Of a stretch of 64,000 nucleotides of DNA, positions 11,692 to 13,101 are shown piece after piece. The translations under genes and the position numbers were made by a program. The stretch is from an uncultured Caldilineaceae bacterium (GTDB lineage Bacteria > Chloroflexota > Anaerolineae > 4572-78 > J111): positions 23,778-87,777 of the forward strand of contig CAYUCB010000001.1 of NCBI GenBank assembly GCA_964443075.1, given 5' to 3'. How positions within the stretch are numbered: position 1 is the first letter of the stretch; each line of letters opens with the position of its first letter. Below the pieces are notes generated by a model. The model did not search any database and was not told the origin of the DNA. It saw nothing but the letters and a program-made list of their open reading frames with translations.

Positions 11692-13101
11692 CTATCTTCT
11701 AATCTTCAACGGCGGTTTGGCTCGGGCGGTGGCCCCACGGGCGGGCAGGCCGCGATAACTGGGGGCCAGGATTTCAAAGGGAGTGCAGCGGCCCACATCC
11801 ATTATCAACGATTTGAGGCGCGGTTTCAGGTCAATATCTTTGGCCATCGTCACGACGGTGGGGAGGCGGGCGTTGTAGCGGTGGTTGAAAAGCTGGTACA
11901 GTTTCTCTTCGGCCCAAGGGGTGGCGCTTTCTGTGCCGAGGTCATCTAAAACTAGCAGGGGCGATTGGCGCACTTCGTCAAACCGCTTATCGTAGGGGGT
12001 CAGGCTGTTGGGGTTAAAGGCGGCCCGCAGGTGATCCAGCAAATCGGGCACTACCACAAACAGGGCCGGTTCGCCCCGGTTGACCACGTCGTTGGCAATG
12101 GCGGCAGACAGATGGGTTTTGCCGCAGCCATAAGCCCCGGAAAAGGCAATCCAATCGCGCGGACGGGCGGCGTATTCACGGGCAAAGGCAAAGGCCCGCT
12201 TTAGATTTTCGGCTTTTTCCCGGTCCAAGTCATTTTCGCGCAGGCTAAAGCTGTCAAAGGTCTGGTCGGCGTGCAGCGAGAGGCTGGATAGTTCCGAAGC
12301 GCCCTGGGTTACACCAATTTGACGAAAATCCGGGGCCATAATTTTGATAATTTGGGCCAGGTCGGGGTCAACCATGCGCGAGCGGATGCGGATGTCAATT
12401 TCTTCTAACTCATGGTTAGAGGTAACTACGGTGGGCAGTTGGGCGTTGTAGCGATAGTTGAACAATTGAAACAATTTTTCTTGCGCCCAGGGGGTGGAAC
12501 TATGCGCTCCCAGATCATCTAAAATGAGCAGTGAGGCGTTGCGGATTTCTTCAAAGCGTTTATCCAGGCTGGTGGTGCTGTGGGGGCTAAAGGTGGCCCG
12601 CAAGTGATCCAGCAAATCGGGCACGACCACAAACAAAGCCGGTTTACCCTGGCCGATAACCTGGTTGGCAATGGCGGCGGCCAGGTGGGTTTTGCCGCAG
12701 CCGTAGCCGCCCAGCAAAACCAGCCAGCCTTCCGGTTGGGCGGCGAAATTATAGGCCATTTCAAAGGCCATGCGCAGATTGCGCCTTCTGTCATCAGTCA
12801 GACCGTAGCCATCGGCCACAAATTTCTCAAAGGTGTAACGGGTCATCTTATCCATATTACTAATGGCCCGCAGATCGTTAAACCGTTTGGATTCCTGTTC
12901 GGCCAGGCGGCAGCGGCATGGGACCAGTTTGCCAAAATCGCGGTGACCCACCGGCACATCCTGGCGCAAATAGCCGGTGCCGCCGCAGATGGGGCACAGC
13001 CACTCTTCGTCAACCGGCAGTCCGGCCTCGATGGGGCTGTTCAGCCACTCGTCGGGCGGCTCGATGGTTTGGCGTTTGAGAATTTCATCAAGTTGGTTCA
13101 T
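11692..13101 (-). CDS. DnaC/DnaI/IstB-like helicase-loader ATPase with an N-terminal zinc ribbon and a tandemly duplicated AAA+ module
   Basis: 'CPICGGTGY..CRC' zinc ribbon. Two near-identical modules: 'GGYGCGKTHLAAAIAN...LLILDDLG' and 'GAYGCGKTHLSAAIAN...LLVLDDLG'. The DNA-level duplication is visible as paralogous antisense ORFs 11965..12204 and 12580... Confidence 0.75.
   Translation of the reverse strand: MNQLDEILKRQTIEPPDEWLNSPIEAGLPVDEEWLCPICGGTGYLRQDVPVGHRDFGKLVPCRCRLAEQESKRFNDLRAISNMDKMTRYTFEKFVADGYGLTDDRRRNLRMAFEMAYNFAAQPEGWLVLLGGYGCGKTHLAAAIANQVIGQGKPALFVVVPDLLDHLRATFSPHSTTSLDKRFEEIRNASLLILDDLGAHSSTPWAQEKLFQLFNYRYNAQLPTVVTSNHELEEIDIRIRSRMVDPDLAQIIKIMAPDFRQIGVTQGASELSSLSLHADQTFDSFSLRENDLDREKAENLKRAFAFAREYAARPRDWIAFSGAYGCGKTHLSAAIANDVVNRGEPALFVVVPDLLDHLRAAFNPNSLTPYDKRFDEVRQSPLLVLDDLGTESATPWAEEKLYQLFNHRYNARLPTVVTMAKDIDLKPRLKSLIMDVGRCTPFEILAPSYRGLPARGATARAKPPLKIRR

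Follow-up and report, generated by a model that had tools for sequence, protein, structure and literature searches.

A predicted tandem AAA+ helicase loader with two unequal modules in Chloroflexota

We analysed a 64-kb stretch of DNA from an uncultured Caldilineaceae bacterium (contig CAYUCB010000001.1; the whole stretch is called the window below) and found that it carries a gene for a predicted replicative helicase loader in which two complete AAA+ ATPase modules, module 1 (M1) and module 2 (M2), follow an N-terminal zinc ribbon in a single polypeptide. This protein is very probably the resident loader of an Anaerolineae-class (Chloroflexota) bacterium, with functionally unequal modules. 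The best explanation overall, to which we assign a probability of roughly 0.55, is a resident tandem loader whose unequal modules assemble in two layers. The geometry by itself, with two layers and six loaders per DnaB hexamer, is proposed tentatively and could well turn out otherwise. On balance, we favour the view that Chloroflexota, in the classes Anaerolineae and Dehalococcoidia at least, use a tandem DnaI-like loader that joins one hydrolysing module to one non-hydrolysing module that binds ATP and single-stranded DNA (ssDNA).

Architecture and family of the loader

An earlier note on this DNA had described a DnaC/DnaI-like loader with a CPIC..CRC zinc ribbon, two pairs of Walker A and Walker B motifs and an internal tandem duplication of the whole AAA+ module, and these points were borne out. 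All of the motifs were present in the open reading frame of 469 amino acids (aa): CPIC at aa 36-39 and CRC at aa 62-64, the Walker A strings GGYGCGKTH (aa 131-139, M1) and GAYGCGKTH (aa 322-330, M2), and the Walker B strings LLILDDLG (aa 191-198, M1) and LLVLDDLG (aa 382-389, M2). When the N-terminal half was compared with the C-terminal half by BLASTP, M1 and M2 aligned over 183 aa with one 1-aa gap (E = 2e-66), at 50% identity and 70% similarity, so that the similarity of about 85% given in the note was overstated. Comparison of the locus with itself in a repeat search revealed two 300-nucleotide (nt) copies, one in each module, that were 74% identical and lay 573 nt apart from start to start, which is exactly 191 codons. 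As the note had observed, there are also paralogous antisense reading frames, at 11965-12204 and 12580-13395 of the forward strand, which have peptide stretches in common. The duplicated unit is a complete initiator-clade AAA+ module that runs from an 'LSxL...TFxxF' lead-in to the 'xD/S-F/Y-R' sensor II motif. These comparisons indicate that the loader arose long ago, when a complete initiator-type AAA+ module of 191 codons was duplicated in frame.

The zinc ribbon is well conserved. Among 113 homologues, C62 was invariant and C36, C39 and C64 were each conserved in at least 90%, and all four cysteines were present in 60/60 proteins of the Dehalococcoidia type, a group of tandem homologues described below. 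In an AlphaFold2 (AF2) model based on the same 113 homologues (mean predicted local distance difference test (pLDDT) score 85.3), the ribbon consisted of two short strands and a helix (aa 63-78). The Pfam model DnaI_N did not match the loader N terminus; by analogy with the N-terminal domain of DnaI, the ribbon is presumed to be the helicase-binding domain. Behind it, the model contained two equivalent alpha/beta cores separated by a linker that was disordered at aa 263-266. Neither module had lid helices; each came to an end directly behind sensor II and the fifth core strand of the AAA+ fold. The gap between the module envelopes was 9 aa in 142/199 Anaerolineae-type proteins and 11 aa in the Dehalococcoidia type.

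The family of the loader was assessed against profile databases and solved structures. The Pfam models IstB_IS21 (PF01695; 116.5 bits, cut-off 24.1) and Bac_DnaA each matched two stretches of the protein, and the best PHROG match was phrog_50 'DnaC-like helicase loader' (304 bits). PRK08116 was the sole curated NCBIfam model that was passed (score 236, cut-off 189), and the scores for the NCBIfam equivalogs fell below their cut-offs (DnaI, 155 versus 228; DnaC, 124 versus 357; IstB, 144 versus 200). By sequence, the nearest solved relatives were DnaI of Geobacillus (2w58, E = 4.8e-16), Staphylococcus (5he8) and Bacillus (4m4w), and further ones were DnaC of E. coli (6qel) and Aquifex (3ecc) and IstB. 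A Foldseek search with a single module matched DnaI (2w58_A) with a target-normalised template modelling (TM) score of 0.70 and a root-mean-square deviation (rmsd) of 3.3 A, and DnaC (6qem_G) with a TM score of 0.63. M1 also has every element that we required of the AAA+ core of a DnaC/DnaI-type loader, namely Walker A and B, sensor I, the box VII arginines and sensor II. On these matches, which uphold the family given in the earlier note, we assign the gene product to the DnaC/DnaI-type AAA+ helicase loaders and predict that it loads DnaB.

To our knowledge, all characterised DnaC/DnaI-type loaders have one AAA+ module per polypeptide. The note had rightly taken the single module as the norm, and the tandem loader differs in this respect from every characterised loader. 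DnaI of Bacillus, Geobacillus and Staphylococcus (2w58, 4m4w, 5he8), which is the best sequence and fold match to one module, shares the 'DD' Walker B chemistry, a zinc-dependent domain that precedes the AAA+ fold at the N terminus and a partner of the DnaD/DnaB_2 family encoded with it. It differs in having one AAA+ module per chain instead of two, and the tandem loader scores below the DnaI equivalog cut-off, has no DnaI_N match and carries its zinc site as a four-cysteine ribbon. E. coli DnaC (6qel, 6qem) belongs to the same AAA+ branch and has the role expected here, opening and loading DnaB; residues of the loader align to its K112, E170, N203, R216/R220 and R237 and to its ssDNA tetrad K143/F146/S177/Y179. 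Unlike the tandem loader, however, DnaC has a single module, a helical zinc-free helicase-binding domain and a 6:6 stoichiometry, whereas M2 of the loader lacks sensor I and, in the clade of the window, the arginine finger.

The closest annotated families are likewise built on one module. The match to PRK08116, which with PRK06835 represents 'DnaC-like ATP-binding protein', spans the region after the zinc ribbon plus one module; these are single-module models of about 270-330 positions that the loader matches twice, and they describe an uncharacterised 'hypothetical protein'. IstB, the helper ATPase of IS21 (5bq5, 8q3w), is of the same AAA+ branch and gives Pfam family PF01695 its name, but the loader scores below the IstB cut-off and lies in a replication-related chromosomal gene order. 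Two-ring AAA+ proteins (p97/Cdc48, NSF, ClpB) resemble the loader in having two modules in one chain, and they were the top whole-chain Foldseek hits (E about 1e-11). In such proteins, one module is often catalytically weak and serves assembly. They belong to another AAA+ clade, however, and have full lid domains that are absent from the AF2 model of the loader, whose modules have their sequence affinity with the initiator clade. We rejected membership of the two-ring (type II) class, and did not accept these hits as evidence for stacking: the whole-chain TM score was about 0.25, the rmsd about 19 A and the identity 14-18%, a match at the level of the module only.

Table 1. Positions of the loader gene, its parts and the adjoining features within the window
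Feature	Position	Strand	Remarks
Tandem-AAA+ replicative helicase loader gene	11692-13101	-	469 aa, ATG start; zinc ribbon, M1 and M2
N-terminal four-Cys zinc ribbon	12910-12996	-	C36, C39, C62, C64; presumed helicase-binding domain
M1 (aa 80-262)	12316-12864	-	Catalytically complete by residue pattern
M1 Walker A, K137	12685-12711	-
M1 Walker B, D195/D196	12508-12531	-
M1 sensor I, N229	12415-12417	-
M1 box VII, R238/R242	12376-12390	-
M1 sensor II, R260	12322-12324	-
Inter-module linker (aa 263-270)	12292-12315	-	pLDDT <50 at aa 263-266
M2 (aa 271-452)	11746-12291	-	Binding residues kept, catalytic residues degraded
M2 Walker A, K328	12112-12138	-
M2 Walker B, D386/D387	11935-11958	-
M2 sensor I position, A420	11842-11844	-
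M2 box VII	11806-11820	-	R428 kept; finger position L432
M2 sensor II, R450	11752-11754	-
DNA repeat copy A (in M2)	11849-12148		300 nt, repeat family D1
DNA repeat copy B (in M1)	12422-12721		300 nt, repeat family D1
Long hairpin	13114-13181	-	In the 81-nt spacer between dnaD-like stop codon and loader start codon
DnaD-like (DnaD/DnaB_2 domain) gene	13183-13950	-	Likely true start ATG at about 13884; presumed co-loader or replisome organiser
Replicative helicase gene dnaB	13967-15328	-	TIGR00665 573.8 bits (cut-off 385); Pfam DnaB and DnaB_C; presumed loader client
Bifunctional-nuclease-domain (BFN) gene	15535-16077	-	PF02577, E = 1.9e-41; directly upstream of dnaB

Unequal modules and assembly geometry

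The reference residues of E. coli DnaC are K112, E170, sensor I N203, the Arg-coupler R216, the Arg-finger R220 and sensor II R237, and a single substitution, N203A in sensor I or R220D in the finger, is enough to abolish ATPase activity (PMC8213410). We counted the corresponding residues in 81 species genomes. In M1, the Walker A lysine K137, the Walker B pair D195/D196, the coupler R238 and sensor II R260 were each present in 81/81 genomes, and sensor I N229 and the finger R242 in 80/81. In M2, the nucleotide-binding residues were kept to a similar extent (K328 invariant, D386 in 81/81, D387 in 80/81), and the catalytic ones were not: the sensor I position 420 read alanine in 29 genomes, serine in 21, threonine in 10, asparagine in 7 and other residues in the rest, the coupler R428 was found in 69/81 and sensor II R450 in 70/81. 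The finger position 432 was arginine in 77 genomes and leucine (L432) in 4, which were those of the window and of the comparison loci L001, L002 and L006. The coupler and finger were assigned to R238 and R242 because these lie four residues apart on a predicted helix (aa 237-243) and follow the R-x-x-S-R pattern of box VII of DnaA. M2 also has a specific pair of residues, R438-C439 (11785-11790; R in 67/81, C in 64/81), just before the last strand of the AAA+ core, where M1 reads L-x.

Written in the order sensor I, coupler, finger and sensor II, the dominant pattern in the close clade of the window was NRRR in M1 with ARLR in M2 (85 exact instances), and L432 occurred in about 100/118 of its members. 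By contrast, the Dehalococcoidia type showed the opposite polarity, with DRH- in M1 and CRRR in M2 in 96/119 proteins: its M1 has a histidine at the finger position and lacks the sensor II arginine, whereas its M2 keeps both arginines and sensor II. Only 4/75 diverse representatives had two catalytically complete modules. The residues equivalent to the ssDNA tetrad (R168/F171/T203/W205 in M1, R359/F362/T394/W396 in M2) were conserved in both modules in every set. Both modules are therefore predicted to bind ATP and ssDNA, because the P-loop, Walker B and ssDNA-contact residues are kept in both. Median identities between orthologues were 60% for M2 and 64% for M1, with 54-55% between the paralogous M1 and M2; M2 is thus under a constraint comparable to that on M1, and is not decaying junk. 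From these patterns, we infer one catalytic module and one module that binds ATP and DNA and is impaired in hydrolysis.

In the mechanism that we propose, which draws on what is established for DnaC and DnaI, the zinc ribbon would dock on DnaB, and the ATP-bound AAA+ modules would oligomerise on ssDNA and so hold DnaB open. Hydrolysis would use cis sensor residues together with a trans arginine finger from the neighbouring module, with M1 as the ATP-hydrolysing engine. The pattern of residue losses constrains the geometry because every AAA+ site is built from two neighbours. In the clade of the window, M2 lacks the finger; a working site could be completed only by the M1 finger of a neighbouring loader molecule, and the M1 copies would therefore form a spiral on DnaB like that of DnaC. 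M2 would make up a second layer that binds ATP and ssDNA, is impaired in hydrolysis and stabilises or times the assembly, resembling the inactive ring of two-ring AAA+ machines. Among the 75 representatives, 9/9 losses of the arginine finger fell in a module whose own cis residues were also degraded, and this joint decay of cis and trans elements in the same module favours like-with-like contacts, in which the complete modules of adjacent loaders would build the active spiral and the degraded ones the second layer. If the loader does combine unequal modules in this way, its assembly would either have two layers, and thus 12 modules for each DnaB hexamer, or be a trimer of hard-wired heterodimers.

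The latter arrangement, a covalent loader dimer in a single ring, is the strongest competitor, although we consider it less likely. Three tandem proteins would supply the six modules that six DnaC/DnaI monomers normally provide, with M1 and M2 alternating in one spiral and only three zinc ribbons on the DnaB hexamer. A precedent exists in B. subtilis, where three non-equivalent DnaI dimers attach to the helicase with threefold symmetry (PMC3791466). Such a ring would agree with the single helicase-binding domain for each two modules, the short linker of fixed length (9 aa), the ssDNA-contact residues kept in both modules and the M2 finger found in 77/81 Anaerolineae genomes, as expected if this finger serves the intact M1 site. 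However, each ATP site would then take its cis residues from one module and its finger from the other, which leaves no fully intact site in the clade of the window or in the Dehalococcoidia type, and yet the complete module is strictly conserved. The coincidence of finger and cis losses in the same module (9/9) also argues against alternation.

A built-in regulator is a considerably weaker candidate. Here, M2 would dock intramolecularly, as a pseudo-neighbour, on the oligomerisation face of M1 and keep the free loader monomeric or auto-inhibited until it is displaced by DnaB, ssDNA or the DnaD-like protein. The self-assembly of loaders is a known control point, in that a phage protein is reported to block S. 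aureus DnaI by binding its AAA+ domain (PMC4887207), and the short linker and the conservation of a catalytically degraded M2 would suit such a role. A mere cap would nevertheless not need the Walker A, Walker B and four ssDNA-contact positions of M2 that are invariant in every lineage, and in the Dehalococcoidia type it is M1, the module beside the zinc ribbon, that is degraded.

Several observations weigh against two layers of unequal modules. The relative placement of M1 and M2 in the AF2 model is unreliable (predicted TM score 0.59), which makes the inter-module arrangement uncertain. The M2 finger is kept in most genomes despite the degenerate M2 sensor I, a pattern that fits an alternating single ring equally well, and the serine or threonine found at the M2 sensor I position in 31/81 genomes may still function. 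R438 of M2 could substitute for the lost finger. The 9/9 statistic ignores shared ancestry and thus treats phylogenetically non-independent losses as separate. Finally, an ungapped phmmer alignment to E. coli DnaC paired R242 with the coupler R216; on this reading, L432 would stand for the loss of a coupler and not of a finger. We disfavour this register, which would leave no conserved arginine at the M1 finger position (246 reads P/L/V/A), and flag the ambiguity; in either register, one of the two box VII arginines is missing from M2 of the window.

Distribution across Chloroflexota and origin

A first protein search returned more than 120 clusters of full-length homologues (430-498 aa, 53-87% identity), and those with names came from Anaerolineae or Chloroflexota. 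A scan of one genome per species then found relatives in at least 586 species genomes, and gene order was counted in the best 80 of these hits. By name, these 80 loci span Anaerolineales, Caldilineales, Ardenticatenales and Thermoflexales. Both modules were present in 80/80 of them, a DnaD-like gene lay directly upstream of the loader in 76, dnaB lay upstream of the loader in 65 and a BFN gene preceded dnaB in 60. The gene order dnaB - dnaD-like - loader was also found in loci L081-L084. An exhaustive search of representatives gave 743 cluster representatives at E < 1e-30, and about 100 of the best 150 had two modules.

The second group of tandem loaders was found with a single-module protein of 278 aa (P0276) as the query: its nearest relatives were two-module proteins of about 450 aa in 119/119 cases, and the named ones came from Dehalococcoidia, Dehalococcoidales or Chloroflexota. 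The Dehalococcoidia-type loader P0360 lies in a cassette of the order rplI - dnaB - DnaB_2 - loader. The earlier note had considered a tandem loader next to dnaB unusual; the 80/80 best loci and the 119/119 Dehalococcoidia-type relatives show it to be typical of its lineage instead, with the doubled form at the core replication locus, an outcome that the note itself had named as refuting. The tandem loader is thus very probably the ordinary resident chromosomal loader of its lineage; it is not an innovation specific to this genome.

Single-module relatives also occur. P0276 itself (L082, 5001-5837) consists of a zinc ribbon and one module that is about 80% identical to the Dehalococcoidia-type M2; it sits in an rplI-dnaB-DnaB_2 cassette, is followed by an HNH gene and belongs to a cluster of 44 member sequences. 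It looks like a natural revertant from which one module was secondarily deleted. A single-module sister group (P0223, P0240, P0254, P0263, P0268 and others) is 50-55% identical to the zinc ribbon plus M1, with the module at the C terminus and an N-terminal extension of 200-400 aa ahead of the zinc ribbon; the N-extended relative in L081 also lies behind dnaB and a DnaB_2 gene. In addition, two metagenomic proteins carry four (P0121, 827 aa) and three (P0122, 792 aa) loader modules, which may have arisen by further duplication, by fusion of adjacent genes or as chimeras of assembly. One two-module homologue, P0086, carries the source name 'Chromosomal replication initiator protein DnaA', a probable misannotation that stems from the shared ATPase domain.

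We also sought to date the duplication. In a neighbour-joining tree, the 135 modules included formed a star-like pattern, with M2 partly separate and M1 mixed with single-module relatives. Between groups (A, Anaerolineae type; D, Dehalococcoidia type), the identities were 0.54 for A_M1-A_M2, 0.55 for A_M1-D_M2, 0.47 for A_M1-D_M1 and 0.46 for D_M1-D_M2. Because the Dehalococcoidia-type M1 evolves fastest, this identity matrix does not separate one ancient duplication from two parallel ones.

The gene neighbourhood in the window is that of a replication locus, as the earlier note had stated: the DnaD-like gene and dnaB lie upstream of the loader on the same strand, and their products score above the cut-offs of TIGR01446 (27.5 versus 24.95) and TIGR00665, respectively. 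The DnaD-like protein also matched phrog_186 'DnaD-like helicase loader' (E = 5e-11) and came just below the cut-off of Pfam DnaB_2 (21.0 versus 22). The window carries tRNA genes and housekeeping neighbours, and no second DnaC-like module was found elsewhere within its 64 kb.

The note had left it open whether the gene is a chromosomal loader variant or a captured phage or plasmid replication module; the conserved core locus bears out the former and the results below speak against the latter. Capture of a phage, plasmid or IS21-type (IstB) module by the chromosome is very improbable, although DnaC/DnaI genes are thought to be phage-derived and one domestication has been reported in Chloroflexi (PMC5109545), the best PHROG match is a phage DnaC-like family and a low-GC islet lies 400 nt downstream of the loader. 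The tandem form was absent from 50,697 phage and 72,556 plasmid records, in which the best matches were single-module proteins of at most 34% identity. No IstA transposase gene adjoins the loader, whose neighbours are the DnaD-like gene and dnaB upstream and a JAB gene downstream. The dnaB or dnaD-like neighbours recur in 65-76 of the 80 loci, with rplI in Dehalococcoidia-type loci, the GC content of the loader-dnaB stretch matches that of the flanking chromosome (50-57%), and the IstB score remains below the NCBIfam cut-off (144 versus 200). An assembly or annotation artefact, either an expanded repeat or the misreading of two adjacent genes as a single one, has nothing beyond a priori possibility in its favour and can be dismissed, although the note had named an assembly artefact among the refuting alternatives: the two copies diverge at 26% of their DNA positions and 50% of their residues, no break interrupts the reading frame and the same architecture occurs in hundreds of independent assemblies from different projects.

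Some of this is already known. The family is abundant in databases under generic names, and the domesticated dna[CI] of Chloroflexi has been published: Brezellec et al. 2016 counted one dna[CI] domestication in Chloroflexi, without mention of a duplication, and reported that Anaerolinea thermophila has exactly one dna[CI] gene and no dciA (PMC5109545). In the literature searched on helicase loaders, Chloroflexota and tandem AAA+ proteins, we found no description of a two-module loader, an absence that is no proof. Apparently undescribed are the tandem architecture, the fixed dnaB - dnaD-like - loader cassette in at least two Chloroflexota classes and the catalytic decay of opposite polarity.

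The number of ATP sites that a helicase loader requires remains a matter of debate for DnaC and DnaI, as is whether loaders act as six equal monomers or three unequal dimers. Tandem loaders provide a natural, covalently fixed pair of unequal modules that is conserved over a large species radiation. The degradation of opposite modules in Anaerolineae and Dehalococcoidia amounts to a natural experiment on the ATP sites needed, and at least one lineage (L082) has apparently gone back to a single module. Stoichiometry, site-by-site use of ATP and the role of the 'silent' module thereby become directly testable. For annotation, such genes currently go under no more than 'DnaC' or 'ATP-binding protein', and a model built for the family would give the Chloroflexota loader its correct name; for the window, the loader is no sign of a mobile element.

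Spacer hairpin, dnaB intein and downstream low-GC segment

The spacer between the dnaD-like gene and the loader gene contains a long hairpin with 28-nt arms that are 93% complementary, built of repeated CGAATGAGCGAA units and without a U-tract. Its predicted RNA fold had an energy of -45.9 kcal/mol (z = -9.2), and 0/200 shuffled sequences were as stable. L002 has a similar palindrome in the corresponding position, and none was seen there in L001 or L006. The hairpin might serve in processing, in stability or in the control of translation, or it might represent a small palindromic repeat.

The helicase gene may be interrupted in several relatives. The dnaB of L081 (1533-4175) encodes an 880-aa product that contains an intein with a LAGLIDADG domain, the spacing from dnaB to the dnaD-like gene is large in L006, L009, L012 and L014, and in several Anaerolineae loci dnaB is matched only in part or is followed by a gap of about 2 kb ahead of the dnaD-like gene. 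The lineage may therefore commonly carry inteins or insertions in dnaB.

Downstream of the loader, about 400 nt away, lies a segment of about 4 kb (7208-11273, reverse strand) with a GC content of 38-47%, compared with about 55% around it. It encodes a 301-aa membrane protein and two STAND-type NTPases, one of 385 aa and one of 656 aa with N-terminal coiled-coil repeats. The segment looks like an inserted islet and is possibly a defence system; PADLOC has no model for its NTPases. It is flanked by a ThiF/E1-like gene (6168-7199) and a JAB/MPN gene (11257-11685). In the closest relatives, the corresponding JAB and ThiF genes are neighbours or nearly so: they are 5 nt apart in L001 (JAB 7561-7986, ThiF 7992-9005) and about 420 nt apart in L002 (JAB 7817-8242, ThiF 8662-9690).

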